Assembly (NCBI GenBank): GCA_050250895.1
Contig: JBFWNU010000001.1
Coordinates: 1,448,008-1,512,007 of the forward strand
Reading direction: 5' to 3'
DNA from: Vulcanimicrobiota bacterium
Lineage (GTDB): Bacteria > Vulcanimicrobiota > Xenobia > Xenobiales > JADMJV01
DNA length: 64,000 nucleotides
Part shown: positions 13,050 to 28,958 of the stretch, piece after piece
Layout: each line of letters opens with the position of its first letter
How positions within the stretch are numbered: the stretch's first letter is position 1
The notes under the pieces: model-generated
What the model was told of the DNA's origin: nothing
Database searches by the model: none
The model's input: the letters and a program-made list of their open reading frames with translations, nothing else
Made by a program: the position numbers and the translations under genes

Positions 13050-14135
13050 CTACCGTCGTTTCTGTCTTCTCATCTGTCGTTTTCGCTTCAATTTTATGAC
13101 ATAGGCCAGAACTTCGGCCACCGCCTTGTAGAGCTCGGTGGGGATGGCCTGGCCCACTTCGCAGGCTCCGAACAGAGTTCGGGCCAGCTCGACGTTCTCT
13201 ACGATGGGCACATCGTGGTCTTCGGCCAGCACCTTGATCTGCTGGGCAATCAGCTTTTCGCCTTTGGCTACCACCGTGGGCACCGGCGATTCGTCCTTAT
13301 CGTATTTGAGCGCAATGGCCAGGTGGGTGGGGTTGGTGACCACCGCCGACGAGTTGGGAACCTCTTCCATCATGCGACCCTGCGAACCCTGGCGCATCAA
13401 CTGGCGCAGCTTGGCTTTGACCTGGGGGTTACCTTCGGTCTCTTTATACTCGTCTTTGAGTTCCTGGAAGCTCATCTTCATCTGCTTCATGAACTGCTTG
13501 TACTGAAAGGCGTAGTCGACCGCCGCGATGACGGTCATGCCGATCAAGACCTTCTTGACGATCTGCATGCAAATCGAAGTCACCAGTTGAGTGGTGGTGA
13601 GCAATTCCCAGTCGGCAGCCAGCATGAAGTTGGCCAGTTCTCCTTTGACCACCGACAGACAGATCCACCCCACGATCGTCAGCTTGGCGATCTGCTTGAA
13701 CAGCTCCATCAGCGACTTCATCGAGAAGATGCGCTTGAAGCCCTCGACCGGGTTGATCTTGTTGAGGGTGGGCTTGAGCGGCTCGAAGGTGAACAGCAGC
13801 TTGATCTGGGCCACGTTAGCGATGACTGCCATGATGAACACGCCCGCCAACAGGGGAGCCAGGGCAATAGCCACCGTGCCGACCCACCAGATCATCTCTG
13901 GCAGTAGCTCGCGCTCTTCGAAATTGTAATAAGGGATCTGCTCCCAGGCCTTTTTGGTAAAATCGGTGATGGTTTTCCACATGAAGCCACCGGCCGCATA
14001 CAGCATGCCGACGGCCGCCAGCAAGCCGGCGGTCGAAATGACCTCCTGGCTCTTCATCACCTGGCCTTTCTTGCGTTGCTCTTGAAGTTTATGTTCGGTT
14101 GGTTCTTCGGTTTTATCGCTATCCTGGCCACCCAA
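13050..14135 (-). CDS. flhB: export switch protein FlhB
   Basis: KTEEPT, EYKETEGNP, intact NPTH autocleavage motif, IVENVELAR. Confidence 0.97.
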   Translation of the reverse strand: MGGQDSDKTEEPTEHKLQEQRKKGQVMKSQEVISTAGLLAAVGMLYAAGGFMWKTITDFTKKAWEQIPYYNFEERELLPEMIWWVGTVAIALAPLLAGVFIMAVIANVAQIKLLFTFEPLKPTLNKINPVEGFKRIFSMKSLMELFKQIAKLTIVGWICLSVVKGELANFMLAADWELLTTTQLVTSICMQIVKKVLIGMTVIAAVDYAFQYKQFMKQMKMSFQELKDEYKETEGNPQVKAKLRQLMRQGSQGRMMEEVPNSSAVVTNPTHLAIALKYDKDESPVPTVVAKGEKLIAQQIKVLAEDHDVPIVENVELARTLFGACEVGQAIPTELYKAVAEVLAYVIKLKRKRQMRRQKRR

Positions 14136-14153: not shown

Positions 14154-14954
14154 CTATTTTGGCGTTACTTCTCCGATAGTCCTGAAGACATCATCCAGAC
14201 AGATGTCGAACTGTTTTGTCAGCATGGTCAAAATGACCGGCAACCCGACCGAGAACATGGTCAAGCCGACGGCGATGTTGAGCGGGAAGCTCAACATGAA
14301 AACGTTCATTTGGGGGGCCACCCGGGCCAACAGCCCCAGCGCCACCTGAGTGATAAAGAGTGCGGCCAGCGCGGGCGAAGCGATCTGCAGGCCGATCACG
14401 AAGATCGAGGCGCTGATATCCACGAAGTGCGAGACCAGGTTTCCGTCGACGTTAAAGCCGGTCAGGGGCACGACCTCGAAGCTCTTGTAGATGGCGATCA
14501 TCAGCTGGTGATGGCCGTCGACCACGAGATAGAGCAGCATCGCGATGTAGAAATTCAGGCGCATCAGCAGTTTCGAGGCGCCGCCTGAGGAGGGGTCCAT
14601 GGAGGCGGCTACCGACAGACCCATCTGGATGTCCATCATTTCGCCGCCAAACTGAGCCGCCGCCATCACCGTAAACGAGGCGAACCCGATGGCCAGGCCC
14701 ACCACCAACTGAGTCAGGATGGCCAGAATAAAGCCCAGGGGCTCGGTGGGAAAATAGGCGGGAATGGGCAGATTGGGAAAGGCGACGATCGTCAACAGCG
14801 AGGCGATACCGATGCGCACCTTCGAGTTGTAGTGCTTACTACCGAAGATCGGGGCCTGAATCATCACCATCACGATGCGAGCAAAGGCTAGCAGCCCGCA
14901 CCCCAGTGCGATCCAGAGGACCTCGTTGATTTCGCGCTGTCCTGCCATGGCCAT
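14154..14954 (-). CDS. fliR: export gate FliR
   Basis: GEMMDIQMGL, DGHH, ARVAPQMNVF; position between fliQ and flhB. Confidence 0.95.
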   Translation of the reverse strand: MAMAGQREINEVLWIALGCGLLAFARIVMVMIQAPIFGSKHYNSKVRIGIASLLTIVAFPNLPIPAYFPTEPLGFILAILTQLVVGLAIGFASFTVMAAAQFGGEMMDIQMGLSVAASMDPSSGGASKLLMRLNFYIAMLLYLVVDGHHQLMIAIYKSFEVVPLTGFNVDGNLVSHFVDISASIFVIGLQIASPALAALFITQVALGLLARVAPQMNVFMLSFPLNIAVGLTMFSVGLPVILTMLTKQFDICLDDVFRTIGEVTPK

Positions 14955-14960
14955 CGTGCG

Positions 14961-15260
14961 TTACCCCGATGGTCCTATGCTGCCCACGTCGGTAAAGATG
15001 CGGATGGCGTAACTGCTGACCATGTTGGCAATCCAGGTTCCGCAGACCACCAGCGAGAGGAACGTGGCCACGATCTTGGGCACGAACGACAGGGTCTGTT
15101 CCTGTACCTGAGTCGTGGCTTGCAAGATACTGATAAATAGACCGACTGCCAGAGCCGACATCAACATGGGGGCAGAGAGGATCAAGATGAGATACAATGC
15201 CTCCGTACAGATCTCCATGATGTAGGCATCTGTGAACATCTCTTCAGCGAATATCAGCAT
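14961..15260 (-). CDS. fliQ: export gate FliQ
   Basis: GLFISILQATTQVQEQTLSFVPK. Confidence 0.96.
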   Translation of the reverse strand: MLIFAEEMFTDAYIMEICTEALYLILILSAPMLMSALAVGLFISILQATTQVQEQTLSFVPKIVATFLSLVVCGTWIANMVSSYAIRIFTDVGSIGPSG

Positions 15261-15305
15261 GTCGTTTCCTCCCTTCTTGAAAAATAGTCAACCAACGAGC
15301 CGCAC

Positions 15306-16106
15306 CTATGGAGGCATGTTCTCCATGTGGAAGCTCTTGACCAGGCCTTTGATGATCAGGTGCCAACCGTCGATCATGACGAACAGCAACAGTTTGAACG
15401 GCAAAGAGATGGTCATCGGGCTGAGCATGAACATACCCATCGACATCAGCACCGAGGCCACAATCATATCGATGACCAGAAATGGCAGATAGAGCAAGAA
15501 GCCGATCTCGAAGGCGGTCTTGATCTCGGAGAGCACGAAAGCCGGCAACAGAACGTAGATGGGCGCGTCGTTGCGCGACTCGACCTTCTGTTGAGACAGT
15601 TCCAGGAAGAGGATCAGGTCCTTGTCGCGGCACTGCAACAGCATGAACTGTCGGGGCGGGGTAGTCAGCTTGACCATGAACTCTGGCTGCTCCATGGTGC
15701 CGGCCAGATAGGGCTGGATGGCCTCCTTGTTCATCTTGATCCCGACCGGGGCCATGACGTACATGGTGATGAAGAGCGCCAGGCCCATCAACACCTGGGT
15801 AGACGGCACCTGTTGCGTGCCCAGGGCGGTGCGCAAGAAGCTCAGCGTGATGGTCGTCCTGATGAAGGCGGTGCTCATGATCAGGATGTACGGGGCCAAC
15901 GTCAAGGTGGTCAGGAAGAACATGACCTGCAGGAACGATGAGGTCTTGGCTCGTTCGTCCTGGTTGGCTCCGTCGATGGTGATCTTGGGCATCTCGATGC
16001 TGGGGAACTCGTTCTGGGCCTCGACCGGAGAGTAGGCGCCGATCAGACCCACCAGCACCACGGCCAGGAGGAGAATGCCCAACCAGCGGCCGGTTCGAGC
16101 GCTCAT
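15306..16106 (-). CDS. fliP: export gate FliP (with N-terminal signal peptide)
   Basis: PAFVLSEIKTAFEIGF, YLPFLVIDM, ISLPFKLLLFVMIDGW. Confidence 0.96.
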   Translation of the reverse strand: MSARTGRWLGILLLAVVLVGLIGAYSPVEAQNEFPSIEMPKITIDGANQDERAKTSSFLQVMFFLTTLTLAPYILIMSTAFIRTTITLSFLRTALGTQQVPSTQVLMGLALFITMYVMAPVGIKMNKEAIQPYLAGTMEQPEFMVKLTTPPRQFMLLQCRDKDLILFLELSQQKVESRNDAPIYVLLPAFVLSEIKTAFEIGFLLYLPFLVIDMIVASVLMSMGMFMLSPMTISLPFKLLLFVMIDGWHLIIKGLVKSFHMENMPP

Positions 16107-16759
16107 TTCTTCACCCCCATGCCGGGTAGAATCGAGGCGTAGTGGCGCAAAATTTCTTTGTAAGACTGAGGCGGGTCGCCGGACTCGGTGGTGTCGACCT
16201 TGATCGGGCGAGCCGCTTCAAGCTCTTCGGTGGTCAGCTCGCAAAGGGGATTCATGGCGTGCTCGGTCATGCCCACCACCAGGATCTTGCCGGCCACCTC
16301 GACCAGGGAGATGGAATGGGTATGGCTCAGGCGCTGGGTCTCGAGCACTTTGAGGAGGGGCTCACTGGCGCTGGACTTGCCGAAGACCCCGGGGGCGATG
16401 GTGGCCAGGCCCTTCAGAGTGCCCCACACCAGCAGGCAGGTGAGGATGAGCGGCAGCATCAAAGCCCGCAGGTCGGCCAGAAAGCCGTCGTTGGGGGCCC
16501 AATCCGGATCGACTCTGGGGTTCCAGGGGTGGGCCTGACCATAGCTGGGGCCCACCTGATGCTGACTGGGGTTGAGGGCCTCACCGAAGGTTACCGGTCG
16601 CTTGTCGGTCTGGCTGTGAGCCGGCGGTGAGGCGGGCGCGTCTTTGGGCCGCGGCGTGATCCGGGCCAGGGTGAACAGCAGCAGGATGAGCATGCAGGCC
16701 ATGGCGCCCGCCACCAACGGAGAGTTACGCCCAGCCTTGTTATAACCCACACCCTGCAT
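16103..16759 (-). CDS. fliO: FliO-like export chaperone
   Basis: TM helix followed by LKVLETQRLS..ISLVEVAGKILVVGMT; position upstream of fliP. Confidence 0.8.
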   Translation of the reverse strand: MQGVGYNKAGRNSPLVAGAMACMLILLLFTLARITPRPKDAPASPPAHSQTDKRPVTFGEALNPSQHQVGPSYGQAHPWNPRVDPDWAPNDGFLADLRALMLPLILTCLLVWGTLKGLATIAPGVFGKSSASEPLLKVLETQRLSHTHSISLVEVAGKILVVGMTEHAMNPLCELTTEELEAARPIKVDTTESGDPPQSYKEILRHYASILPGMGVKK

Positions 16760-17031
16760 CAATTCATCAATTCGGTGATCCGAACTCCGTAATTTCCCTC
16801 GATCTCTACTACTTCGCCCCTGGCGATGAGGGTCCCGTTGACCACCAGGTCGACGGGGTCGTTGCCGTCTTTGTCGAGTTCGATCACCGCTCCCTCACCG
16901 AATTTCAACACGTCACGCACGCTCTTGGTGGTTCGCCCCATCTCGGCTTCGACGATAAAAGGCACGTCGTAAAGGATGGTAAGATCTTCCCTTTTCTTGG
17001 GCCGTTGAGGCTGTGCGTTGTAATCTTCCAC
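16759..17031 (-). CDS. fliN: FliN/SpoA-domain C-ring protein (copy 2)
   Basis: DVPFIVEAEMG, GAVIELDK, PVDLVVNG, ARGEVV, YGVRITE. Confidence 0.88.
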   Translation of the reverse strand: MEDYNAQPQRPKKREDLTILYDVPFIVEAEMGRTTKSVRDVLKFGEGAVIELDKDGNDPVDLVVNGTLIARGEVVEIEGNYGVRITELMN

Positions 17032-17333
17032 TATTTCACAATCTCCGTGATGCGAACGCCATACTGACCATCGATCTCGACCACCTCGCCCCGAGCGATG
17101 GCCTTATTGTTGACCAGAATGTCGACCGGCTCACCGATTTCCTTGTCGAGTTCGACCACCGAGCCCACCTGCAGGCGCAGAATATCCCGCACCAGGCGGC
17201 GGGTCTTGCCCAACTCAGCCTGGACTACCAGAGCGACGTCTTTGAGCAGATCGATCGTGTTGGCGTTGGCCCCCTCGGCCACGCTGCCCTCGAGCTGGCC
17301 GAATTGAACCGCTCGGGGTCCTTGATCACTCAT
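17031..17333 (-). CDS. fliN: FliN/SpoA-domain C-ring protein (copy 1)
   Basis: IDLLKDV, ELGKT, GSVVELDK, GEPVDILVN, ARGEVV, YGVRITEI. Confidence 0.92.
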   Translation of the reverse strand: MSDQGPRAVQFGQLEGSVAEGANANTIDLLKDVALVVQAELGKTRRLVRDILRLQVGSVVELDKEIGEPVDILVNNKAIARGEVVEIDGQYGVRITEIVK

Positions 17334-18309
17334 CGTATTCTTCGTCTCCCTCTTGCAGAACTCGGTTGATCTTGGCAGCCAGCCGACCGTCTTTGATGCC
17401 GGGCTGGCCGAGAAACTTGGTCTTGTTGTTGACCTTGATTCGCAACGGGTCGCGAATCTCTGAATCCAGGCGGATGGTGTCGCCTACCTCGATGGTTAGC
17501 AGCTCTTGAAAGAGCAGTTCGGCGCGGCCCAAACTGACAGAAACCGGCACTTTGGCATTGTGGATGTGCTCGGGAAAGATGATTTTATCATCTTTGGGCG
17601 CCTGGAAGGTGGTGGTCAGCATGAACTCGTCAAACGACCGCTTGGGGATCATCTCTTTGAGATAGCGGAAAGGCACGCAGACGTTGATCAGGCCTTGAGC
17701 CTGGGCCACATCGACCTGGAAGGCGGTCACCACCATCGTCTCGGAGGGGGCGCAGATATAGACGGCATTGGGGTTGAACTCGAGGCTTTGAAACTGGGCC
17801 TCGACCTGGCCGACATCTTTCCAGGCGTCGCCAAAAGCCGATAGCATACGGCCCAGCGGTTTCTTCAGGATGGCCTTCTCGAGATCGGTAAAATAGGGTC
17901 GCAGCTCTTCTCGCGGGGGAGCGCCCTTGCCACCCATCAAGCGCTCGAAGATGGCAAAGGAGAGGTCGAAATCGATGTCGATGAAGCCCGAGGTGTTGTC
18001 ATTGAGGCGGAAGACCAGCACCGGGGTGGGCTCGGGCAAGGAATTCAGGTAGGAGTGGTAGGGAAAGGTCTTGAGCTTGATCAGCTCCATCTGGAAACGC
18101 GACTGGAGCAGGGGAGCCAACTGGGTGACCACCGCCTCGGAAAAGCCCACGAAAATCTTCTCCAGAAAGCGGTTCTGGTCTGAGGTGAATTTTTCGGTCT
18201 GACGAAAGTCAAAGGTGCTGGCACCCTGAAACCGCTGCCGCTGAGCTGCTCTCATCGCTTGGTCGAATCTTCCGCCATTTCCCAATTTCTCTCGGCCCTC
18301 CACGGGCAA
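17326..18309 (-). CDS. fliM: C-ring protein FliM (lacks N-terminal CheY-binding peptide)
   Basis: FDFRQTEKF, RLMGGKG (FliG-binding GGxG), FTDLE, C-terminal SpoA domain; exact start uncertain. Confidence 0.9.
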   Translation of the reverse strand: MPVEGREKLGNGGRFDQAMRAAQRQRFQGASTFDFRQTEKFTSDQNRFLEKIFVGFSEAVVTQLAPLLQSRFQMELIKLKTFPYHSYLNSLPEPTPVLVFRLNDNTSGFIDIDFDLSFAIFERLMGGKGAPPREELRPYFTDLEKAILKKPLGRMLSAFGDAWKDVGQVEAQFQSLEFNPNAVYICAPSETMVVTAFQVDVAQAQGLINVCVPFRYLKEMIPKRSFDEFMLTTTFQAPKDDKIIFPEHIHNAKVPVSVSLGRAELLFQELLTIEVGDTIRLDSEIRDPLRIKVNNKTKFLGQPGIKDGRLAAKINRVLQEGDEEYDE

Positions 18310-18456: not shown

Positions 18457-18479
18457 AGCGGGCGCCCGAGGCGCCCGCT
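18457..18479 (-). terminator. stem-loop downstream of flgE-like gene
   Basis: AGCGGGCGCC-cga-GGCGCCCGCT perfect 10-bp stem; only a weak U-tract on the minus strand. Confidence 0.5.
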
Positions 18480-18492
18480 CGCCTTGGGAAGA

Positions 18493-19308
18493 CTATCGAA
18501 CCAGACCGAGAGCGGACTGGGTGAGCTTGTCCATAGCCCGGAAGGAGGCCATGTTGGCTTCGAAATTCTGCTTGGTCATGCCGATAGCAGCACCTTCTTG
18601 CATGAAGTCGACGTTAGAGAGTTCGAGGCTGCCGGGAGCGATGCTGCCCAGCGCACCCTGGCCGGCCACCCCGATGACGGCGCCGCCCGAATCGGCCGAC
18701 TCGACAAAGCTGGTGGTTCCCGAGCGCTCGAGCGACCCGGCGTTGGCGAATGAGGCCACGGCGGTTTGATAGATGGGAGTGGTGGTGGTGATCTGCTGCC
18801 CCGTGACGGGGTCGGTCATGGTGGCTTCACCATAGAGCTTACCGGTGTCGTCGAAGTGGAAGCCAGTGTATTTTCCGCCGTAAAGATTGGTGTTGGGATC
18901 GAGAGTCAACTCGATCGGCTTGGAGTCGCCCGAGATGTTGCCCTGCGAGTCGAGGGGGAAGCCCATCACCGACTTGCCCATCGCGTCTTTGAGCGAGCCG
19001 TCTTGCCAGGTGAAGCGACCGTCGCGGGTGTAGTGGTTCTGGAAGCCGTCGTTGACCACGAAGAACCCCTGACCGTTGATGGCCAGGTTGGTGTTGGTTT
19101 GGGTTTTGAAAATCTGGCCCTGATCGAAGGAGACGTTGTTTTTCTTGACTTTGGCGCCGCCAGCCAGGGTCGAACTCATAATGTCGTTGAACTGGACCAC
19201 TTCGGCCTTGTAGCCGGGAGTAAACTGGTTCTTGATGTTCTCGAATCGGCTCTGCAGAATCTCCTGGTTTTGAGCCATGTTGTTGGCAGCGTAGTTAAAA
19301 TCAAACAT
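18493..19308 (-). CDS. flgE: short hook/rod family protein (FlgE/FlgG-like, 271 aa)
   Basis: TPGYK, LAINGQGFF, YTRDGRF, LELSNVD; sits at the flgE position of the operon. Confidence 0.75.
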   Translation of the reverse strand: MFDFNYAANNMAQNQEILQSRFENIKNQFTPGYKAEVVQFNDIMSSTLAGGAKVKKNNVSFDQGQIFKTQTNTNLAINGQGFFVVNDGFQNHYTRDGRFTWQDGSLKDAMGKSVMGFPLDSQGNISGDSKPIELTLDPNTNLYGGKYTGFHFDDTGKLYGEATMTDPVTGQQITTTTPIYQTAVASFANAGSLERSGTTSFVESADSGGAVIGVAGQGALGSIAPGSLELSNVDFMQEGAAIGMTKQNFEANMASFRAMDKLTQSALGLVR

Positions 19309-19404
19309 TCGAAATGGTCCTCTCCTTATTTCAACCCTGTGGTGCGGGGCTGTCCCGCTGTTTCTTTCCTACAAAATTCCTCGATTTTAGAGTAACCGAG
19401 GGCA

Positions 19405-19443
19405 GTTACATGGGCGTTACCGGCCTGTTAACGAAAAGTTAAC
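19405..19443 (-). promoter_or_regulatory. four 11-bp-period GTTAAC-like direct repeats upstream of flgE
   Basis: GTTACA-N5-GTTACC-N5-GTTAAC-N5-GTTAAC; TAAAAT -10-like hexamer on minus strand at 19389-19384. Confidence 0.7.
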
Positions 19444-19452
19444 CTACTCGAC

Positions 19453-20388
19453 TCAAACAACCTCCTCGACCAGCTTGACTCGCATCGCTTCCAGGCGAAT
19501 GCCCTTGGCTTTCACCTGGGAGAGAAGTTCTTCTTCGCTCTCTTCAAGCAGCTCGCGAGTGGCCCGCGAAGTGGTCTGGAACTCGGCCCGAATACCCTTT
19601 TCGTCGTGAACAAGCGAAATTTTGACATCGCCGAGGTACTCGGGATTGAGCTTGAGGTTGAGTTCGGTCTGGTTGGCCAGATTGCGTACCTCGACATGCG
19701 CCAGGATCTGATTCATCAGGTTCTGGCGCTGCTCAGCTCGCTGGGCTTCGCCCGTCTTGCCGGCTTCCCGGGTCTTCATCGCCTCTTCGGCCAGCATCTG
19801 CTCGAGACGACCACCGGAGTTCGTATTGCCCGAGGCGGCCAGCTGCTCGTTGCTGGTCTTTTGCTCTTTGCCGTCGGCCTCGCGCAGCAGCGAGTCGATC
19901 AGGCGCGAAAGCTGGTTGCGGTCGGTCTGATTGGTCAGCTGGGTCAACTGCGAGTAGGACAGGTCCTTGAGGTTGAGGCCCTTGCCCAGCAGCATTTTCT
20001 GCAGCTCGGAGAGGCCCACCTTGTCCATCGAAAATTCGCCCAGCTTGAAGGCCTGGCGTTCGGCCGTGGACATCGTAGAAGGGTCCTTGTAGGCCAGCGT
20101 CTCGAGATAGGCCTGGAGCTTGGCCCCACCCTTGAGTTGCTCGGGCTTGGCCTCGACTTTGGCTTCGGCCTTAGCAGCTTCTTTGGCGTCTTCTTTGCCT
20201 TTCTTGGCTTTGTCTTCTTTGTCGGGCGCAGCCTTGTCGTCGATGACGCCTTCTTTGCCGCCGCCGCCCGATTGGACCGCGTCATTCATTGCCGAGCTGA
20301 AAGCCCCGGCGTCGCCCTTGTCGGTTTTCTTGCTCGTCTCACTGGCTTTGGTCGTGCCCATGAGTGAGCCGATGACTGGGTTGTCCAC
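19453..20388 (-). CDS. fliK: length-control (ruler) protein FliK
   Basis: Low-complexity N-terminus; C-terminal T3S4 domain LKLNPEYLGDVKISL..IRAEF. Confidence 0.85.
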   Translation of the reverse strand: MDNPVIGSLMGTTKASETSKKTDKGDAGAFSSAMNDAVQSGGGGKEGVIDDKAAPDKEDKAKKGKEDAKEAAKAEAKVEAKPEQLKGGAKLQAYLETLAYKDPSTMSTAERQAFKLGEFSMDKVGLSELQKMLLGKGLNLKDLSYSQLTQLTNQTDRNQLSRLIDSLLREADGKEQKTSNEQLAASGNTNSGGRLEQMLAEEAMKTREAGKTGEAQRAEQRQNLMNQILAHVEVRNLANQTELNLKLNPEYLGDVKISLVHDEKGIRAEFQTTSRATRELLEESEEELLSQVKAKGIRLEAMRVKLVEEVV

Positions 20389-20396
20389 CGTGCCTC

Positions 20397-21041
20397 CTAG
20401 ATGCTCTGTCCGTGGTTGGAACTGTAGTAACGATAGTTGTCGAGAACCTTGGCTACGTAATCTTGCGTTTCTTGATAGGGAGGAACGCCGCCGTGCTTTT
20501 CGACTGCACCGGGACCGGCGTTATAACCGGCGATGACTTTGGTCAGGTTGCCGTCGAAGCGGTCCATCAATTGGCGCAGATAGAGGGTGCCGCCCATGAT
20601 GTTCTGATAGGGATCGTAGGAGTCGGTCACTCCCAGCCCGGCAGCCGTCTCGGGCATCAATTGCATCAAGCCCTGGGCGCCTACATAAGAGGTGGCCTTG
20701 GGGTTATAGGCCGACTCTTGCTTGATGACCGAGCGAATCAGGGCCTGATCCACACCGTGTTTCTTCGAGGCCTCGGCGATCATGCCATCAAAATCCTTCG
20801 AGTCGCCATTCCAACGGTTGGCGTTGAGTTTGGCCGGGCCCGAACGAGCGTCATAGCGCTGATCGTCGGCCAGAGAATTGACCAGGCTCTCGAAGGTCAC
20901 CCCTTCGTTGCCGGCCGGCGCGCCGCTGGTCAGATTGGTCTGGCCGGCGTTGGACTGAAATCCGGCTCGCCCTCCCTCGAGTTTCGAATCGAGTTGGGCG
21001 ATCTTCTTCTCGATCGCGGCCATTCTATTGAATACTGACAC
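20397..21041 (-). CDS. soluble lytic transglycosylase (SLT domain)
   Basis: VIKQESAYNP, GAQGLMQLMP, AGYNAGPG, ETQDYV. Confidence 0.93.
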   Translation of the reverse strand: MSVFNRMAAIEKKIAQLDSKLEGGRAGFQSNAGQTNLTSGAPAGNEGVTFESLVNSLADDQRYDARSGPAKLNANRWNGDSKDFDGMIAEASKKHGVDQALIRSVIKQESAYNPKATSYVGAQGLMQLMPETAAGLGVTDSYDPYQNIMGGTLYLRQLMDRFDGNLTKVIAGYNAGPGAVEKHGGVPPYQETQDYVAKVLDNYRYYSSNHGQSI

Positions 21042-21052
21042 GATGTTCCTCC

Positions 21053-21526
21053 CTATCGCTCTTCGGCTGCTTCGCGTGCCTCACGGGCAAACTTGATGGT
21101 CGCTAGTTCGTCGATCAGACGGGCCTCGACAGCGTCCATCTCGGCCACCCATTCCTCCTGGCACTTTTCCTTGTGTTTTTCGTAGACTTTCTTCTCTTGA
21201 GCCGCCTTCAGTAGAGCTTTCCTCTGCTCTATGATTCTAATGGCTAGCTCTCGTAGACGCAACTCCTGGCTTTTTATTTTGTTCTCTAGATTCTTGATGT
21301 GGGCGGGGTAGAAGCGTAGTTCTTCCATGTTGAGGCTGCCGCTCAGGTGCTTGGTTTTGAGCGTCAGGCGGACATCCCTCAACGTCTGTTCGAGCTGGGC
21401 TTTGACCTGCTTTTCGTAAGCCTCTTGCTCGAGCAGCTTGGCCAGCTTTTCTTTCTCTTCTTCCTCTCGCTTGACTTTGAACTCGAGTACCTTCTCGAGT
21501 CGATACTTGAACTTTTTCGGCGGCAC
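21053..21526 (-). CDS. fliJ: export stalk protein FliJ
   Basis: KFKYRLEKVL N-terminus, coiled coil, LIDELA; follows fliI. Confidence 0.85.
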   Translation of the reverse strand: MPPKKFKYRLEKVLEFKVKREEEEKEKLAKLLEQEAYEKQVKAQLEQTLRDVRLTLKTKHLSGSLNMEELRFYPAHIKNLENKIKSQELRLRELAIRIIEQRKALLKAAQEKKVYEKHKEKCQEEWVAEMDAVEARLIDELATIKFAREAREAAEER

Positions 21527-22845
21527 TAGTCTTTGAAGATCCTTCTCAGGTGATCCATCATTTCGTCAAAGGTGCTTTGCTCGTGGATGCCTTGTTTGAG
21601 AAAGGCGGCAATGGCGTCGTTCTTGGCGATAGCATAGTCGACCTTGGGGTTGGAGCCGCGCTGGTAGGCGCCGATGTTGATCAGGTCTTCGTTCTCGCGG
21701 TAGGTGGCCATGGCGTTGCGCAGGCGCCCGGCCAGCTCTTGATGCTCTTTGGTGGCGACTTCGGTAAATACACGAGAGACCGACTGCAGCACGTCCACGG
21801 CCGGATACATATTCTTGTGGGCGATCTTACGCGACAAGACGATGTGGCCGTCGAGAATACCACGAACCGCATCGGCGATCGGCTCGTTCATGTCGTCGCC
21901 GTCGACGAGCACGGTGTAGACAGCGGTGATCGTTCCCTTGGGGGAGGTGCCGGCCCGCTCCATCAGCTTCGGCAAGAGGGCAAAGCAAGAAGGCGTATAG
22001 CCTTTGGTAGCGGGAGGCTCCCCGATGGCCAGTCCGACTTCGCGCTGAGCCATGGCAAAACGCGTCACCGAGTCCATCATCAGCATCACGTTGTAACCCT
22101 GGTCGCGGAAGAACTCAGCCACCGCCGTGCCTGTGTAGGCGGCCTTGAGGCGCACCAGGGCAGGCGTGTCGGAGGTGGCCACCGCCACCACCGAGCGCTT
22201 CATGCCTTCTTCGCCCAGGTCGCGCTCGAGAAAGTCACGCAACTCACGGCCACGCTCGCCGATGAGGGCCAGCACCGCAATGTCGGTTTCGGAAAAGCGC
22301 GCGATCATGGACAGGGTGGTCGATTTACCGACGCCCGAACCGGCGAAGATTCCTACACGTTGGCCGCGGCCGAAGGTCAGGGTCGAGTCCAGCACGCGAA
22401 TGCCCATCGAGATGCGCTCTTCGATGCGCGGTCGGGTGATCGGGTTGGGTGGCGTGTTGTAGATGGGATACTCCTCTTCGCAGTCGAGGGGACCCAGGCC
22501 ATCGATCGGTTCGCCCAGACCGTCGAGTACGCGCCCCAAGAGTCCCCAGCCCACCTTCACCATGAGCGGCTTGCCCGTCGAGCGAACCTCGCATCCCGGG
22601 CCGATGCCACCCATCTCGCCCAGGGGCATGAGCTGGACCCGGTTGGCTTTGAAGCCTACCACCTCGGACCGGATGGAGCGTCCCTCCTGGTCATAAATGT
22701 AGCATAGCTCACCCAGTCGCACGGCCGGTCCCTCGGACTCGATGGTCAGGCCGATGACCTGCACCACTCTGCCGTGCTGCTTGATAGTCTGGATGCGAGG
22801 CAATATCTTTTCGTAGCGGCTAAAATCGACGGCTAACTCAGCCAT
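21526..22845 (-). CDS. fliI: type III export ATPase FliI
   Basis: GIFAGSGVGKST, LIGERGRE, MDSVTRFAMAQRE, GEPPATKGY, ILDGHIVL; start at ATG 22845. Confidence 0.96.
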   Translation of the reverse strand: MAELAVDFSRYEKILPRIQTIKQHGRVVQVIGLTIESEGPAVRLGELCYIYDQEGRSIRSEVVGFKANRVQLMPLGEMGGIGPGCEVRSTGKPLMVKVGWGLLGRVLDGLGEPIDGLGPLDCEEEYPIYNTPPNPITRPRIEERISMGIRVLDSTLTFGRGQRVGIFAGSGVGKSTTLSMIARFSETDIAVLALIGERGRELRDFLERDLGEEGMKRSVVAVATSDTPALVRLKAAYTGTAVAEFFRDQGYNVMLMMDSVTRFAMAQREVGLAIGEPPATKGYTPSCFALLPKLMERAGTSPKGTITAVYTVLVDGDDMNEPIADAVRGILDGHIVLSRKIAHKNMYPAVDVLQSVSRVFTEVATKEHQELAGRLRNAMATYRENEDLINIGAYQRGSNPKVDYAIAKNDAIAAFLKQGIHEQSTFDEMMDHLRRIFKD

Positions 22846-24049
22846 TCTCTTCCTCCTGCGAGAACTCGGGCTCGGCCTCGAACTCGGGCTCGGGGGTGAA
22901 TTCTTCTTCGGGTGCAAAATCGGGCTCTTGAGGGGTAACCTCTTCGAGCCCCTGGAAGTCGGGGTCGCCGGGGACCTCGACCGGTTCGGTGGCGGCCTGG
23001 TTGGCGAGTTCTTCTTCGCGCAGTTTGGCCATCTCTTCCATGCCGTGGCGAATCGCATCGAGCTGAGTATGTAATCTGGCGTCGATGTTGCCCAGGTTGG
23101 TCTCGATGGTGCAGCCGCCCGGATCGATGGTCGGATCGGCCACCACCTCAAAGCTCTTGAGCCCTTCGACCATCCGCTCGAAGCTGGCGCGATGATCGCG
23201 TACGATCTGCACATCTTGCGGGTTGACCCGGATCGAGACCTCCTCTCGGTCCTTGATGGCGCCCAGTGCCTGGCGCACGATGGCTAGAATGACCTCGGGG
23301 TCGACCTTGATGGCTTCGCCTAGCACCCGCTCGGCGATCTTGACCGCCAACCGGGCGAGTTCGGGCTCGACCGTGGCCACGATGGCCCGCCGGGCCCGCA
23401 CGGCCTGAACATACATATCCTTGGCCTGGGCAATCCGCTCGACGAACTCGCCCACCGAGGCGTTGTAGCCCTGCTGATGGCCGGCCTGTAGGCCTTCTTG
23501 ATAACCACGCTCGCGAGCCTGCTCTTCGGCCTGCTGGGCCGCCTGCTGGGCCTGCGTGGCCGTCTGCTGCATGTAGTGCTGGGCCTGGGCCTGAGCTTCT
23601 TGCAGCATCTGCTGGGCTTTCATCCGGGCCTGCTCGAGGATCTGCTCGTCGATGGGCGGACCCTTCTGCACCTCTTCTTCGGGCTCTTCCAGGTCTTCGT
23701 CGTCAAACTCGAGTTCGATGGGATCGGGCTGGGGTGGGGCCGGCGGCCGATCGCCGCCCACGATCAGCGTCTGGGTCAGCGGATTGAGGGTGCTCGGCTT
23801 GGTCTCGACCCTCGGCTTGCCACCGATGACACGGCCGGTGCTCTCGACCCTGGGCGGGCTGACCAGCGTCTGCTCGAAGGGAGGCTCCGGCTCGGGTTCG
23901 GGTTCTTCGTCGTCGCGCTCGAGCTGGGTGGGATGCATGGGAGCAAAGCTCTGCCCCTCGGCGTTGTCACGGTGCCGATACAGGTTCGACGAGGGAGCGG
24001 CGGGTTTTTGCTCTACGCTTTCTCCCTTTTTGCGCTTGATGAGTGCCAC
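22838..24049 (-). CDS. fliH: FliH/SctL ATPase regulator with long acidic Pro-rich extensions
   Basis: GYQEGLQAGHQQG repeats, IRVNPQD, GGCTIETNLGNIDA. Confidence 0.88.
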   Translation of the reverse strand: MALIKRKKGESVEQKPAAPSSNLYRHRDNAEGQSFAPMHPTQLERDDEEPEPEPEPPFEQTLVSPPRVESTGRVIGGKPRVETKPSTLNPLTQTLIVGGDRPPAPPQPDPIELEFDDEDLEEPEEEVQKGPPIDEQILEQARMKAQQMLQEAQAQAQHYMQQTATQAQQAAQQAEEQARERGYQEGLQAGHQQGYNASVGEFVERIAQAKDMYVQAVRARRAIVATVEPELARLAVKIAERVLGEAIKVDPEVILAIVRQALGAIKDREEVSIRVNPQDVQIVRDHRASFERMVEGLKSFEVVADPTIDPGGCTIETNLGNIDARLHTQLDAIRHGMEEMAKLREEELANQAATEPVEVPGDPDFQGLEEVTPQEPDFAPEEEFTPEPEFEAEPEFSQEEENG

Positions 24050-24058
24050 AAGCGGCTC

Positions 24059-25060
24059 CTATTTGAACTTGATCTTGCCCAGGGTCACCAACCCCCTGAG
24101 GATGTTGCGAATCTGCTGTTGGGCGGCCTTGGTTTCGTCGAAGGGCACCTGGCCCAGACTCTCGACATCGTCGCGCAGAGCCTTGGCCACCTCGGGCGAG
24201 AGGAAGCGATAAATGCGCTCGGCCAGGTCCTTGTTGGCACCCTTGAGGGCCAGCACCAGGTCGCGAAAGTCGGTCAACCGCAGCACCTGCTGCAGCGAGT
24301 TGTCGTCAATATTGTTGAGGTCTTCGAAGTCACACAGCTTGGTCTTGATGTCGCTGGCCAGCCGCGGGCTCTTCTGAGTCAGCCCGGAGAGCACGCTGGC
24401 TTCGGTGCCGCGGTCCGCCTGGTTGAGAATCTGCAGCAACGTTTCCTTGCCATCGCTATGGCTTTGGAAGCCCTCCTCGAGCGCCTTGTGCAGGCGGCCC
24501 TCGAGAATCTTCTCGAGTTCAGAGACTACCTCGCTCGAAACGTGGCCAAGCTCGGCCAACCGCTTGGCCACCTCGGTCTGGGTGGTCGGCGTGAGTTCGC
24601 CGAGCACCGCCGAGGCCTGGTTGGAGTCTAGATAAGACAAGACCACGGCGATGGTCTGCGGGTGCTCTTTGCGGATCAGATGGATCAGTTGGCGCGGATC
24701 GACTTTGCGTAAGAAGCCCAGCGGACGATTGGCCGCCGCACCGGGCGGGCCGCCCATGGTCGGCGGCATCGACTTGCTGCCCATCATGGGCTGGGTGAAA
24801 GCTGCGTGGGCCGGAGCGGTCGGCGCCGAGCCGCCTCCGCCGGAGGACTGAAGAAATTCTTCGATGACTTGAGCTCGGATCTCGGGGGAGATCTGAGGCA
24901 GCTTCGAGATCTCGAGAGTGATGGCCTGAACTTCTTCGGGGCCGAGTTCTCGAAACAGTTGCGCCGAGACCTCGGGAGGGAGCGACATCAGCAAGATAGC
25001 CGCTTTCTGCTTAGGAGGCAGGTTGCTGGTCGAAATGGCCTTCCACTTTCCTTTCTGCAT
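24059..25060 (-). CDS. fliG: C-ring protein FliG (degenerate torque helix)
   Basis: QKAAILL, EHPQTIA, FEDL, LALKGA, LRDD, AQQQI. Confidence 0.93.
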   Translation of the reverse strand: MQKGKWKAISTSNLPPKQKAAILLMSLPPEVSAQLFRELGPEEVQAITLEISKLPQISPEIRAQVIEEFLQSSGGGGSAPTAPAHAAFTQPMMGSKSMPPTMGGPPGAAANRPLGFLRKVDPRQLIHLIRKEHPQTIAVVLSYLDSNQASAVLGELTPTTQTEVAKRLAELGHVSSEVVSELEKILEGRLHKALEEGFQSHSDGKETLLQILNQADRGTEASVLSGLTQKSPRLASDIKTKLCDFEDLNNIDDNSLQQVLRLTDFRDLVLALKGANKDLAERIYRFLSPEVAKALRDDVESLGQVPFDETKAAQQQIRNILRGLVTLGKIKFK

Positions 25061-25116
25061 GGTTGCGCCCCGGGACAGGCCCGAGGCGCAATTCCATCAT
25101 ATCGAAGTCTGGTCGA

Positions 25117-26790
25117 CTAGGACAGCCAGGTGCTCTTGAGCATCTCGGCCACTTTGGTGGGACGCTCTTTGGCCAGCTGTTCTAGCTGCTCGTTGGTGTT
25201 GACTTTGGTCTCGCCAGCGCTCGGAGGAGCGGTCGACTTGCCCGACTTCTCGTTGAGCAGGTCGGCGATGTCGGTCGAGGTGGCGCCCGAGGTGCCGCCC
25301 AGGACCAGTTTGCCCTGGTTGACCTGGACCGAGTGCTGCTTGACCATGAAGGTCAGAATCAGACCCAGGAAGACCAGCGCCACAGCCGTGCCAGCGATGG
25401 TCAGGTGGCGAGCGGTCAAGCCGCCGCCGCCGGCCGTCTCGCCGAAGCCGGGGGGAGGGGTGATGGCCAGATCAGTGCCACCAACCGCCGGACGATAGAT
25501 AGGCATGCTCTCGACCACGACGCTGTCGCCGCGGGCTTCGTCGATACCGATAGCGTTGCGCACGATACCGGCAATCTTGGCCACCTGGTCTTCTTTGAGG
25601 TTGTCAACGACCACCGAAGCGGTCTTGCGTTTGACGCGATAACTCTTGTCTACGGTGCGGGACACGGTCTTGCTGGTGTCGATCTTGACCGACTCGACCT
25701 CGTGCACATAGTTGTTGTTGCTGGTCCCGCCGGATGAAGCCTGTTCGACATCGGTGGACAACTGGCGGGCGTTGGAGCTGCCGCCGGCGTTAGGATCCTT
25801 CGAGTAGCTCTCGACCTTCTTCTGGCGGCCCACTACGACGGTGCCCTGGTCAGCCGGTCCGCCCACCACCGAACGGGTTACTTCGTTTTGGGAGAAGTCG
25901 AGTTCGGCATTCACGGTGGCCACGGCTTTGCCCGGGCCGAGAACTTTGTCGAGCTGGTCTTGAACCTTTTGGGTTAGCTCTTTTTCAATACCCAGCTGGG
26001 TCTCTTGTTGGGTGCCAGCGACTTGCGCGCCGTCGGGGCCCTGAGGCAACTGGGCGGTCAGGTCCATTCCCATGGTGTCCACGATTTTGACGTGCTCGGG
26101 CAAGAGTTCAGGCACCGAGAAAGAGACCAGATGGACGATGCCAGCGATCTGCTCGCGGGTCAGCTTGGCGCTCGGCTCGAGTTTGACCAGCACCGTGGCG
26201 GTGGTCGGGCGCGAGTCGTCGCGGAAGTAGGTCTGCTCGGGAATGGCCAGCTTGATGTAAGCGTCGGCCACGCCTTCAACCTGGCGAACGGTTTCGGTCA
26301 GTTCGCCCTCCAGCATCCGCTGGCGTAAAGCTTTCTGTTCGGCCTGAGTCTTGGCCTGAATGCCACCTTCGGGGGTATTGTAGGGGGTGGTGATAGCGTG
26401 CCGGGGCAGGCCTTTGGCAGCCAGGGCCACCTGGGCACGAGCTTTGGTTTTGGGAGAGACCAGAATGCCGTCGAGCAAGTCCACATTGTGGGGGATGCCC
26501 AGGCTGGTGAGTTCCATCGCCACGGCCTTGGTGTCTTCGTCGTTAAGCTTCGTGGTGTAGAGAGGCACGTAGGCGTTGGCCGTGTTGGAGTGGACCACGA
26601 AGGCCGTTCCCAAAATGGCGATCACCAGAAATGCCGAAAGAGCGATCTTGGTACCTTTGCCAAGTCCCTCCCACATTTCTTTGATTTTTCCCAGGGGCCC
26701 GCCTCCGCCGGCTGGACCTTTCCCGATTGCGGAGCGTCCTGTTGCCAGGCGACTGCCGCTTTTCATCCCCGTTTGGATCCCGGTGGCCAT
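25117..26790 (-). CDS. fliF: MS-ring protein FliF
   Basis: Two TM helices, LEGELTETV, LAIPE, TATVLVKL, IVHLVSFSVPEL, C-terminal PTKVAEMLKSTWL. Confidence 0.93.
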   Translation of the reverse strand: MATGIQTGMKSGSRLATGRSAIGKGPAGGGGPLGKIKEMWEGLGKGTKIALSAFLVIAILGTAFVVHSNTANAYVPLYTTKLNDEDTKAVAMELTSLGIPHNVDLLDGILVSPKTKARAQVALAAKGLPRHAITTPYNTPEGGIQAKTQAEQKALRQRMLEGELTETVRQVEGVADAYIKLAIPEQTYFRDDSRPTTATVLVKLEPSAKLTREQIAGIVHLVSFSVPELLPEHVKIVDTMGMDLTAQLPQGPDGAQVAGTQQETQLGIEKELTQKVQDQLDKVLGPGKAVATVNAELDFSQNEVTRSVVGGPADQGTVVVGRQKKVESYSKDPNAGGSSNARQLSTDVEQASSGGTSNNNYVHEVESVKIDTSKTVSRTVDKSYRVKRKTASVVVDNLKEDQVAKIAGIVRNAIGIDEARGDSVVVESMPIYRPAVGGTDLAITPPPGFGETAGGGGLTARHLTIAGTAVALVFLGLILTFMVKQHSVQVNQGKLVLGGTSGATSTDIADLLNEKSGKSTAPPSAGETKVNTNEQLEQLAKERPTKVAEMLKSTWLS

Positions 26791-26865
26791 AGTTTCTCCT
26801 CTCCTACCTACCGGCGCTCTCTCTCTGTTTTAGCGAGCGCCGCTCCTTACCCCTCGCGAACTTTC

Positions 26866-27216
26866 TTAGAGCTGCATCTGGAACAGCTGAGTGGTGGCTT
26901 GGGCCATCTTGCCCACCACGGTGGTGGTCAGCTTCATCATCACCTCGGCCTTGGCGCCGGCGATGGTCATCTCGTGCAGGCCGTCCATGTTGCCGCTCAA
27001 CAGGTTGTTGGTCGACTTGATGGAGCCGTCGATGGTCGTGTTGACGGTGTTGAGGCTCTCAGCCAGCACGGCGCCGAAGGCTTTACCGTTTTCTTCGGAC
27101 TGACCGGGCTGCTCGATCATTTTCGGCATGCCGATGCCGGAGATCGGGGAACCGGTGGTTCCGATGCCGCTTACGCCGGAAGTGATACCCTGAATGGATT
27201 GAAAGGGGGACTGCAT
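26866..27216 (-). CDS. fliE: FliE-like adaptor (divergent C-terminus)
   Basis: FGAVLAESLNTVN, LHEMTIA..KAE, terminal MQL; position between flgC and fliF. Confidence 0.8.
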   Translation of the reverse strand: MQSPFQSIQGITSGVSGIGTTGSPISGIGMPKMIEQPGQSEENGKAFGAVLAESLNTVNTTIDGSIKSTNNLLSGNMDGLHEMTIAGAKAEVMMKLTTTVVGKMAQATTQLFQMQL

Positions 27217-27227
27217 AATCTTACTCC

Positions 27228-27710
27228 TTAGCCTTTACCGATCTCGAGAGCTTTCATCGCCATCGCTTTCGCCGATTCGATGGTGGTTGCGTTAGCCTCG
27301 TAGGCGCGACTGGCGGCCATCATCGAGGTCATTTCTTGAATGATGTTGACGTTGGGCATCGCGACGTAGCCTTTGCGATCACCCTCCTTTTCGGCGTTGG
27401 GATTGGTGGGGTCGTAGACCCAGCGGAAGTCGCTATTGTCTTCCATAATCCCGTTGACGCCGACACCGCCGCCCGAGAAGTTGACTTTGTTGTTGAAGTC
27501 GAACTCGCCGTCCATCGAGGCAGTGGTGAACGCCTGGTCGAACATCTCGGCCTGCTTGGCATTGATCACGGCAACCTGACGGCGGTAAGGATCTCCGTCT
27601 TCGGTTTTCGAGGTGTTCGCGTTGGCGATGTTGTTGGACACCACATCCATACGGAACTGCTCGGCGCGCATTCCGCTGGCTGCAATATCGAAGGTCTGGA
27701 AGAATTTCAT
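27228..27710 (-). CDS. flgC: proximal rod protein FlgC
   Basis: ASGMRAE, NNIANANT, PYRRQ, YDPTNPNA, GYVAMPNVN, ASRAYEAN. Confidence 0.96.
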   Translation of the reverse strand: MKFFQTFDIAASGMRAEQFRMDVVSNNIANANTSKTEDGDPYRRQVAVINAKQAEMFDQAFTTASMDGEFDFNNKVNFSGGGVGVNGIMEDNSDFRWVYDPTNPNAEKEGDRKGYVAMPNVNIIQEMTSMMAASRAYEANATTIESAKAMAMKALEIGKG

Positions 27711-27729
27711 CTAGTCTGCCTCTCTCGTC

Positions 27730-28149
27730 TTATCGACCGCTGTTTTCGACAACCCACTTCAGGGAGCCGTAGATGCCCGAGATCTTCGAAGCCAGAGCGT
27801 TATACATAATCTGGTTCTTGGCCAGACTGGCCATCTCGGAGTTGACATCCACCTTACCGCCCACATCTTCGATGGTGGGCTGCAGGCTGGCTTTGGTCCA
27901 ACCGCCGGCGCCATCAATGGCGAACTCGGGGTCGACTACTCCGGCGGGGCTGAAATCGGTGTCAGAGCCGGCGGCCTCGTCATTGTCCATCGCTTCGCGC
28001 AGATGATTCTCGAAAGCAACGGTCTGGGCTGTGTAGCCCTCGGTATTGACATTGGCCATGTTGTTCGAGATGACTTGCTGGCGCAGCGTGGCCGCACCGA
28101 TAGCCTTCTCTAACAGCGTTGTGTCAACAAGTTGAAACGGCTTCCCCAA
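27730..28149 (-). CDS. flgB: proximal rod protein FlgB
   Basis: LRQQVISNNMANVNTEGY, VDVNSEMASLAKNQIMYNAL; TTG start after AGGAGGAG. Confidence 0.9.
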   Translation of the reverse strand: MGKPFQLVDTTLLEKAIGAATLRQQVISNNMANVNTEGYTAQTVAFENHLREAMDNDEAAGSDTDFSPAGVVDPEFAIDGAGGWTKASLQPTIEDVGGKVDVNSEMASLAKNQIMYNALASKISGIYGSLKWVVENSGR

Positions 28150-28279
28150 CGTTTCGCTCCTCCTAGTAATCGGTCAGGTCGTCATTCGACCCTGTTTATT
28201 TCGGCGATGTCCAAATAAATTTCGGCTCTTTTCGCACTCTCAGTTTACCGGCGCGGTGTTTCTGTTATGTTGAGTCCAT

Positions 28280-28502: not shown

Positions 28503-28958
28503 TTGATGCCTTCAGGACCGGGCGGCCCCACCGGGCCGATTCCCGGCGCGAACATACCCCTAACAGAAGAGTGGTTCAAAGCTCAGAAGAAGCTCATGAA
28601 AGAGGGGGGGATCAAGGAGGCCACCGAGTCCTCGGATGTCTTCACTCCCAGCGAAGCGGCCCAGAAGCTTCCCTCCACCGAAGACGAGCGCTTTCTGGCC
28701 AGCGTCAAGCCCGAGATCTTGTCGCTCGACCCTGACTCCGAGACGTTTCTGGACGAGGCCACCGAGAAGCTGGTTGGCTCGGTGATCGAGCAAGAATACG
28801 GCGAACACATGGCGCGCAACCCGGCCTATCCGCAAATGCAAGAGAAGATTACCCGGACCATCCTCGAGAATCCCCAGTATCGCGAGATGGTGGCCGACTT
28901 TCTCGACATCATGCTCATGACGGCCCCTCAGGCCGAAGAAGCTCCGTCCCAGGAATAG
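28503..28958 (+). CDS. hypothetical helical protein, divergent from flgB
   Basis: 151-aa ORF with typical codon usage; Pro/Gly-rich N-terminus and acidic helical C-terminus. Confidence 0.75.
   Translation: MMPSGPGGPTGPIPGANIPLTEEWFKAQKKLMKEGGIKEATESSDVFTPSEAAQKLPSTEDERFLASVKPEILSLDPDSETFLDEATEKLVGSVIEQEYGEHMARNPAYPQMQEKITRTILENPQYREMVADFLDIMLMTAPQAEEAPSQE

Follow-up and report, generated by a model that had tools for sequence, protein, structure and literature searches.

What becomes of a flagellar rotor protein when the residue that should face the stator carries the opposite charge? The question is raised by a fliG gene in a stretch of 64,000 nucleotides from the genome of a Vulcanimicrobiota bacterium (contig JBFWNU010000001.1, positions 1,448,008 to 1,512,007), which as a whole is termed the window here. 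The gene belongs to a flagellar operon of the window that, together with a distant cluster in the same genome, we call System 2, and its product is termed FliG2. Our reading, to which we give a probability of roughly two in three, is that System 2 is a strongly conserved second flagellar-type type III export machine, which does not rotate and has neither stators nor a filament. The gene content, synteny, conservation and co-inheritance of System 2 are matters of observation and are set out in turn. The part of PMC6079164 drawn on here counts R281, D288, D289, K264 and R297 of FliG as motor residues and ranks them as of primary or secondary importance, with R281 in the former class and positions 264 and 297 in the latter. 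Two charge pairs between MotA and FliG, R90 with D289 and E98 with R281, are given in the portion of PMC7564593 that concerns us.

FliG2 is recognizably a FliG. It comprises an N-domain (residues about 12-73), a disordered linker (74-111), an M-domain (112-196) and a C-domain (204-333), and its gene sits between fliF and fliH within the operon. It matches the Pfam families FliG_N, FliG_M and FliG_C with 98.8, 112 and 109 bits, scores 233.1 bits on the NCBIfam FliG equivalog TIGR00207, whose cut-off is 226.7, and aligns with FliG chains of solved structure, the top one being 1lkv_X with an E-value of 7.4e-50. Residues were numbered by pairwise alignment to E. coli K-12 FliG, taken from an annotated record (L010:4881-5876), and the features that matter are the following.

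24059..25060, minus strand: fliG2, FliG of System 2, 333 amino acids, intact open reading frame (ORF)
24191..24193, minus strand: codon GAG for E290, at the position of E. coli R281, a charge reversal (alignment)
24143..24145, minus strand: codon CCC for P306, at the position of E. coli R297 (alignment)
24167..24172, minus strand: D297 and D298, equivalent to E. coli D288 and D289, retained (alignment)
24242..24244, minus strand: K273, equivalent to E. coli K264, retained (alignment)
24326..24337, minus strand: hinge LCDF, residues 242-245, which replaces MFxF; E. coli has MFLF at 233-236 (alignment)
24656..24667, minus strand: FliM-binding motif EHPQ, residues 132-135, intact (alignment)
24728..24841, minus strand: Gly/Pro/Ala-rich linker, residues 74-111, which replaces the end of FliG_N and the N-M helix (Pfam, AlphaFold2, entropy)

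The FliG_N match spans only positions 2-61 of the 104 in the profile, and in an AlphaFold2 model built on a 42-row alignment residues 74-108 have a predicted local distance difference test score (pLDDT) below 50 and no secondary structure. The same model is confident for the M and C domains, with pLDDT values of 93-97 in the C-terminal blocks. An earlier note on this DNA, made from its letters and translated ORFs, had claimed that R281 is replaced by Glu and R297 by Pro, that K264, D288/D289 and EHPQ are retained and that the hinge reads LCDF for MFxF; the alignment to E. coli K-12 FliG agrees on every one of these, and the codon coordinates given for the two replacements are exact. Its further claim that the helices connecting the N and M domains had given way to a Gly/Pro/Ala linker is borne out by composition, by the partial FliG_N match and by the low pLDDT of the model. 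Positions are given below in E. coli numbering.

These changes are fixed in the clade. We took the best 120 cluster representatives, which are 58-100% identical to FliG2 and whose source labels, where given, are Eremiobacterota, Vulcanimicrobiota or Candidatus Bruticola. Position 281 is Glu in 76 of them, Asp in 43 and a gap in one; position 297 is Pro in 77, Ser in 38, Asp in two, Ala and Thr in one each and a gap in one, and is basic in none. Position 264 remains Lys or Arg in 119 of the 120, position 289 is acidic in the same number (Asp in 105, Glu in 14) and position 288 is variable, while the Cys of the hinge, at the position of F234, is again found in 119. The four residues of EHPQ are present in 120, 119, 112 and 120 representatives, respectively. 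As position 281 is always acidic in the clade, the reversal is conserved and not the outcome of drift, and this fixation suggests a new constraint on the residue. Conservation is unevenly spread over the protein: the C-terminal subdomain is its best-conserved part (mean entropy 0.70 bits), with 0.47 bits in the last helix, 1.11 in the torque helix and 1.02 in the M domain, and the linker is the most variable part at 2.65 bits. A C-terminal subdomain that is both highly conserved and predicted with a confident fold argues that fliG2 is not a decaying gene. In a wider comparison against a representative library of 1.84 billion proteins, about 11 of the representatives were of the FliG2 type, and among the matches listed there were 139 other FliGs, in which 281 is Arg or Lys in 127 and 297 is Arg or Lys in 117 and Pro in eight; the hinge in the distant representatives listed is mainly MFVF, MFTF or MFIF. 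Pro at 297 also occurs in two stator-associated FliGs from relatives, and by these alignments loss of R297 alone is not diagnostic and is a weaker marker than position 281.

Does the genome have stators at all, and to which FliG do they belong? Searches of the assembly by tblastn with the window proteins and by Pfam located a second, dispersed and canonical set of flagellar genes on the same contig, which we call System 1.

121-130 kb: fliI, fliK, flgD, flgE, motA-a, motB-a and fliP
545-560 kb: fliN/Y, fliM, cheX, a gene with a CsrA domain, fliW, flgL, flgK and flgM
561-580 kb: flgF, flgG, flgA, flgI, flagellin, fliD, a sigma-28-type gene, a second sigma gene, motA-b and motB-b
585-594 kb: flhA, flhB, fliR/Q, flgC, fliF, the gene for FliG1, and fliH

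FliG1 (L005:871-1845) has R281, E288/D289, R297 and the hinge MFVF. MotA-a and MotA-b both retain E98, and MotA-a has R90 as well. A MotA with a compensating charge would have told against the earlier note; in alignments with orthologues there is no basic residue at E98 in either MotA, and as both keep E98 there is no reciprocal substitution for E281. System 1, with FliG1, flagellin and two MotAB pairs, is most likely what provides swimming here, and the organism itself is probably motile by it. As separate observations on these genes, MotA-b (L004:1099-1968), with Ser at the column of R90, and its nearer orthologues (L020-L026, L028), with Ser, Ala, Gln or Asn there, keep E98 and carry Lys or Arg three residues upstream of that column. 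The more distant orthologues have Arg at the column itself. Downstream of fliW a 395-residue frame (L012:14283-15470, minus strand) combines a CsrA domain (1-52) with HisKA and HATPase_c, and is either a CsrA-histidine kinase fusion or an artefact of ORF calling.

Two further genes of the MotA/ExbB family were considered as stators and rejected. The third such gene of the genome (L001, on C4) has counterparts in 137 of the 151 genomes of a phylum sample, a tally that includes the unpublished genome G127; these counterparts are present in all nine genomes of family f20, where no FliG was found, and absent from 13 genomes with System 2, and we read the gene as a housekeeping TolQ/ExbB type. The fourth match (L002) is an ExbB beside ExbD and a Pro-rich TonB-like protein.

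The phylum sample, which includes the present genome, was searched with six queries by protein and hidden Markov model (HMM) methods, and it is the distribution of the two FliG types that ties the stators to System 1. The FliG2 query matched 91 of the 151 genomes. In 62 of these the best match is 46-100% identical and thus of the System-2 type, and in the other 29 (26 of family f15, two of f21, and G102) the sole match is 32-39% identical. Matches to Flagellin_N occurred in 55 genomes (above the cut-off in 48), to MotB_plug in 53, to MotA-a in 48 and to MotA-b in 16. Twenty of the 62 genomes with System 2 have a flagellin match, and 19 of these carry another FliG as well, at 28-36% identity (full-length in 17, cut by contig ends in two); the sole one without it, G021, is 67% complete. 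The remaining 42 gave no match to flagellin, MotA-a, MotA-b or a second full-length FliG. Of these FliG2-only genomes 31 are at least 90% complete, and 17 belong to family f2, mostly with genomes of 2.2-2.9 megabases (Mb). One of them, G003, is 96% complete and gave no match whatsoever to the MotA/ExbB family.

Residues were read in 19 further FliG genes of the sample. All nine of the System-2 type (46-60% identity) have Glu or Asp at 281, and eight have a Cys-containing hinge of the LC[DE]F type; the four sole FliGs read from f15 and f21 and the six second copies all have R281 and an [ML]FVF hinge, position 297 in the second copies being Pro in two and Lys in two. Both types of stator, flagellin, FlgI and FlgD were seen only where an R281-type FliG occurs, G021 being the exception for flagellin. 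FlgI was found in none of four FliG2-only genomes searched for it, and FlgD likewise in none of four. Five FliG2-only genomes have only three or four rod/hook-family proteins each (FlgC, FlgX, FlgF, FlgG), with no FlgK/L-type protein among these matches (FliD and FliS were not searched). Set against the earlier note's proposal that FliG type should be compared with motA across the phylum, the acidic-281 FliG therefore occurs without either MotA in 42 of 62 genomes, and stators only with the R281 type. A motile species sharing the variant, which would tell against that note, was not found: all 52 named relatives among the matches are uncultured metagenome-assembled genomes (MAGs), some with clearly automatic labels.

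Weak MotB_plug matches (27-29 bits) occur in three FliG2-only genomes, G023, G028 and G032. The MotB_plug matches of genus g31 were examined as a possible hidden stator, and the one locus opened (G028:C44, L069:4367-9306) encodes a Zorya-type defence pair, with ZorA of 1382 residues beside ZorB of 257. Two other observations on fliG in the sample are the tandem System-2-type genes of G064 (C41:9207-10202 and 10734-11717), whose products are 72% and 67% identical to FliG2, and a small extra FliG_N-like ORF beside fliG in genomes of genus g6.

What, then, does System 2 consist of? Its operon in the window holds 19 genes, from flgB to flhA, on the minus strand from 28149 down to 10925, and no motA, motB, flgD, fliL or flagellin lies among them. 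Apart from fliG2 they are, with one divergent gene:

28503..28958, plus strand: conserved 151-residue gene, divergent from flgB (same place in three distant relatives)
27730..28149, minus strand: flgB, first gene of the operon (Pfam, synteny)
27228..27710, minus strand: flgC (Pfam, synteny)
26866..27216, minus strand: fliE (Pfam, synteny)
25117..26790, minus strand: fliF, for the MS (membrane and supramembrane) ring (Pfam, synteny, equivalog)
22838..24049, minus strand: fliH (Pfam, synteny)
21526..23214, minus strand: fliI, longest ORF (Pfam, synteny, equivalog)
21053..21526, minus strand: fliJ (Pfam, synteny)
20397..21041, minus strand: lytic transglycosylase with an SLT domain, in the role of the C-terminal part of FlgJ (Pfam, synteny)
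19453..20388, minus strand: fliK, hook-length control and switch (Pfam, synteny)
18493..19308, minus strand: flgX, a short FlgE-like hook/rod protein of 271 residues without the D2 domain (Pfam, tblastn, synteny)
17326..18309, minus strand: fliM2 (Pfam)
17037..17249, minus strand: second gene with a FliN-type domain, minimum extent (tblastn, Pfam)
16759..17031, minus strand: fliN (Pfam, synteny)
16103..16762, minus strand: fliO (Pfam, synteny)
15306..16106, minus strand: fliP (Pfam, synteny)
14961..15260, minus strand: fliQ (Pfam, synteny)
14154..14954, minus strand: fliR (Pfam, synteny)
13050..14135, minus strand: flhB, with the NPTH autocleavage site retained at residue 268 (Pfam, equivalog)
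10925..13033, minus strand: flhA, last gene of the operon (Pfam, synteny, equivalog)

The distant cluster (C1:1289951-1296453) adds genes for a FliK-like protein, a small FlhB_C-like protein, FlgF, FlgG, a rod-binding protein (FlgJ_N), a FliA/WhiG sigma factor and a TPR protein, and is kept in four FliG2-only genomes. In three FliG2-only genomes of 47-57% guanine-plus-cytosine (GC) content all 19 operon genes are present in identical order, and their products show 75-76% identity to the window protein for FlhA, 68-76% for FliI, 65-69% for FliG and 30-34% for FliK. FliG2, FlhA, FliI, FliF and FlhB pass flagellar equivalog cut-offs, and FliM2 falls below the NCBIfam FliM cut-off (187 against 219.6 bits). 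The N-terminus of FliM2 lacks the CheY-binding motif of FliM, whereas FliM1 of System 1 has it at its start. The conservation of System 2 extends through a lineage of class level, to which record titles give the names Xenobia or UBP9.

Some details of the locus deserve mention. Read at its longest, the fliI ORF shares 377 bases with fliH, and relatives align to it only from about residue 108-129; as its first 115-130 residues or so have no counterpart in relatives, the true start is probably downstream, within this ORF. The two FliN-type genes in tandem after fliM2 (17037-17249 and 16759-17031, minus strand) are 56% identical to each other in product and are both kept in relatives. The genes flanking the operon were considered as partners or substrates of System 2, and only the 151-residue gene proved to be conserved, the others in the window having no counterpart in the loci of relatives. 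Its product (28503-28958) is 36-44% identical in three distant relatives, has no match in Pfam or NCBIfam and matches only unnamed clusters of the Atlas; it is a candidate accessory of System 2, for instance as a substrate, a regulator or a chaperone. Three RNA libraries from a single study and one DNA run supply contigs that lie on 10900-28200 at 92-99% likeness, with a summed depth that is higher over flgB-fliF in the RNA libraries and flat in the DNA run. Coverage in this form of the operon of a relative, about 94-96% identical, is a weak hint of expression, as such contigs do not show transcription and their depth cannot rank genes.

These observations suggest how a machine of this kind might work. 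Besides an MS ring and a cytoplasmic (C) ring, System 2 would have a rod and a short hook-like protein, an ATPase complex and an export gate, and a FliK/FlhB switch together with a FliA-type sigma factor of its own; stators, P ring, hook cap, hook-filament junction and flagellin would be missing. The N-domain of FliG2 is predicted to dock on the C-terminus of FliF, and its M-domain, with EHPQ kept, to hold FliM and FliN; conservation of the N-domain and of EHPQ is consistent with FliG2 linking FliF to FliM and FliN. The C ring would then serve as a sorting platform for the FliH/FliI/FliJ complex and the FlhA/FlhB/FliPQR gate. With no contact to MotA, the arginines of the torque helix would have been free to be replaced (R281 by Glu or Asp, R297 by Pro or Ser), and the switching apparatus would have been remodelled or lost, both at the hinge, where MFxF became LC[DE]F, and at the CheY-binding end of FliM. 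As the parts for torque and for switching have been replaced, the ring is most likely static, and System 2 would still assemble and export. The earlier note's idea, that the ring is assembled and serves export without being driven by stators, gains support from comparative genomics, and it is still something that we infer.

Several considerations weigh against this view. The present genome has two MotAB pairs, and a System-1 stator may serve the System-2 ring here. Position 281 is invariantly acidic in the alignments, D289, K264 and R287 are conserved and the last helix is nearly invariant; such conservation of the surface that faces MotA implies that a partner still constrains it, one that might generate force and have escaped recognition. 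The absences come from HMM and protein searches of MAGs, which a very divergent stator or filament protein would escape. In flagella it is through FliK, the NPTH site of FlhB and a FliA-type sigma factor that export turns to late, filament-type substrates, and their retention implies that late substrates not yet recognised probably exist. Finally, for every member of the clade our reading is drawn from sequence comparison.

The strongest competitor, which we nevertheless hold to be unlikely, takes System 2 for a functioning rotary motor, driven by one of the two MotAB pairs here and by an unrecognised stator elsewhere, and turning its rod and hook or a novel filament; the reversed charge at 281 would then match a changed surface on the partner. 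If System 2 did not turn, two MotAB pairs would serve a single motor here; MotA-b and its near orthologues have no Arg at the R90 column, FliG2 conserves the acidic 281, D289, K264 and the C-terminal subdomain, and the FliK/FlhB switch and FliA-type sigma are retained. However, both MotA types are confined to genomes with an R281-type FliG and flagellin, neither is present in 42 of the 62 genomes with System 2, and in relatives the MotAs adjoin System-1 genes, as in G054:C101, where a second FliG (13733-14638) is accompanied by MotA-b (15328-16176). E98 is kept in both MotAs, so that a like charge would face E281. The other candidate from the MotA/ExbB family, of the L001 type, is found even in the FliG-less f20 and is missing from 13 System-2 genomes, the CheY-binding end of FliM2 is gone, and flagellin, FlgK/L-type proteins, FlgD and FlgI were not found in the FliG2-only genomes searched.

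That System 2 is the decaying relic of a flagellum, in which the arginines were lost by neutral drift, we judge very improbable. Searches found no genes for stator, filament, cap or P ring alongside it, a variable linker of low complexity now stands in the N-M region, and FliM2 scores under its family cut-off, all of which decay might produce; but 19 intact genes remain syntenic despite a 10-point spread in GC content and protein identities of only 36-76%, or 30-34% in the case of FliK, and they are kept in reduced genomes of 2.2-2.9 Mb. The replacement residues are themselves fixed (281 is always Glu or Asp, and 119 of 120 have the hinge Cys), FliG, FlhA, FliI, FliF and FlhB pass their equivalog cut-offs, and the RNA-library contigs over the operon of a close relative add their weak hint. 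Least probable of all, by a little, is that both gene sets together make up a single flagellum, with the basal body from System 2 and the late parts and stators from System 1. The late genes missing from System 2 are located in System-1 regions, as this would require, but System 1 has its own FliF, FliG, FliH, FliI, FliM, FliN, FliP, FliQ/R, FlhA, FlhB, FlgC, FlgF/G, FlgD/E and FliK, System 2 stands alone in 42 sampled genomes, and family f15, which lacks System 2, runs its flagellum on an R281 FliG.

If System 2 is indeed a non-rotating export machine, a broader proposal can be made, which we advance tentatively and with rather less than even confidence: that it represents an undescribed class of flagellum-derived nanomachine, non-rotating and filament-less, in which a C ring with FliG, the FliK/FlhB switch and a dedicated FliA-type sigma factor are retained. 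Once rod and hook are complete it might export late substrates, either effectors or a signalling anti-sigma factor. The acidic 281, the LC[DE]F hinge and the nearly invariant last helix could mark a new partner that replaced MotA on the ring, and the whole would be a second route from the flagellum to a secretion or sensing machine, independent of the injectisome.

How does this compare with known systems? FliG2 resembles the canonical FliG of E. coli and Salmonella (1lkv, 3hjl, 8umd) in its three domains, its fliF-fliG-fliH position, its match to TIGR00207, the retention of EHPQ, K264, D288/D289 and R287, and a C-terminal fold, torque helix included, that is confidently predicted. It differs in the acidic 281, the Pro or Ser at 297, the LC[DE]F hinge, the disordered N-M linker and the lack of a co-inherited MotAB. 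Among reduced flagellar systems the closest known case is the aphid symbiont Buchnera, which has hook-basal bodies without a filament that have been proposed to be protein exporters. System 2 is likewise a flagellar type III apparatus without flagellin, in cells that would not swim by means of it, and export is its proposed role; unlike that of Buchnera it is also found in genomes of up to 9.5 Mb, is conserved at class level, can coexist with a full flagellum, has fixed changes in the torque helix and hinge of FliG and has its own FliA-type sigma factor. In the bacteria known to have dual polar and lateral flagella, such as Vibrio and Rhodobacter, each set has its own stators and flagellin. 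Systems 1 and 2 are similar to these in being two basal-body gene sets in one genome, but here both stator pairs and the only flagellin belong to System 1.

The injectisome is described in the part of Abby and Rocha 2012 (PMC3459982) drawn on here as derived from the flagellum through loss of motility parts. System 2 shares with it the disappearance of those parts and the retention of the export core, the ATPase and a FliM/N-type platform, and is distinct in keeping FliG, FliF, flagellar rod proteins and an FlgE-like protein. Its core proteins set it apart: FlhA reaches 802 bits on the FlhA model (cut-off 772) but 615 on hrcV (cut-off 692), FliI is recognised as FliI clade 2 and not as SctN, and FlhB as flhB and not as SctU (secretin and needle families were not searched). 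Dehalococcoidia, in the relevant part of PMC10284905, keep flagellar genes as remnant clusters in lineages regarded as non-flagellate; in comparison with the remnants as described there, System 2 has a complete and syntenic set of 19 genes with about six more, strongly conserved. For the present lineage (Eremiobacterota/Xenobia/UBP9) we found no description in the literature of a stator-less, filament-less flagellar system. The 'flagellar genes' of a related family were annotated and pooled in the section of Paoli et al. 2022 (PMC9259500) that deals with them, and the phylum's one cultured member, of another class, has neither flagella nor flagellin according to the portion of PMC9758169 that describes it.

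The genome also carries stray paralogues of flagellar genes outside both systems. A 1001-residue ORF (C1:2473604-2476609, L017:5604-8609, plus strand) combines a FliG_N-like domain (393-446) with one like the cytoplasmic domain of FlhA (610-945), and in relatives FliG_N-like domains lie within ORFs of 640-1055 residues. FlhA_C-like fragments or paralogues were located by tblastn at C1:1126946-1127581, C1:2008926-2009807, C1:2013811-2014728, C6:529371-530369, C7:121910-122902 and C8:31683-32150. An orphan full-length FliF paralogue of 527 residues, with YscJ_FliF and FliF_C (C2:554979-556562, L016:6979-8562, plus strand), has a ClpB-like AAA+ gene on one side and a PAS-SpoIIE phosphatase on the other, and there is no other flagellar gene nearby.

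If our reading of System 2 is correct, it would be a natural experiment on the role of FliG and the C ring once torque generation has been removed, and a living parallel to the origin of the injectisome from the flagellum. It also calls for caution in reading motility from 'flagellar genes' in metagenome bins, as in this lineage fliG, fliM, flhA and similar genes are no guide to flagellin or stators. In the genomes examined, an acidic 281 with an LC[DE]F hinge, as against R281 with MFxF, provides a sequence marker for telling the two systems apart. The lineage includes bacteria of gut, rumen and wastewater, none of them cultured to judge from record titles, and System 2 would be its most conserved envelope machine.

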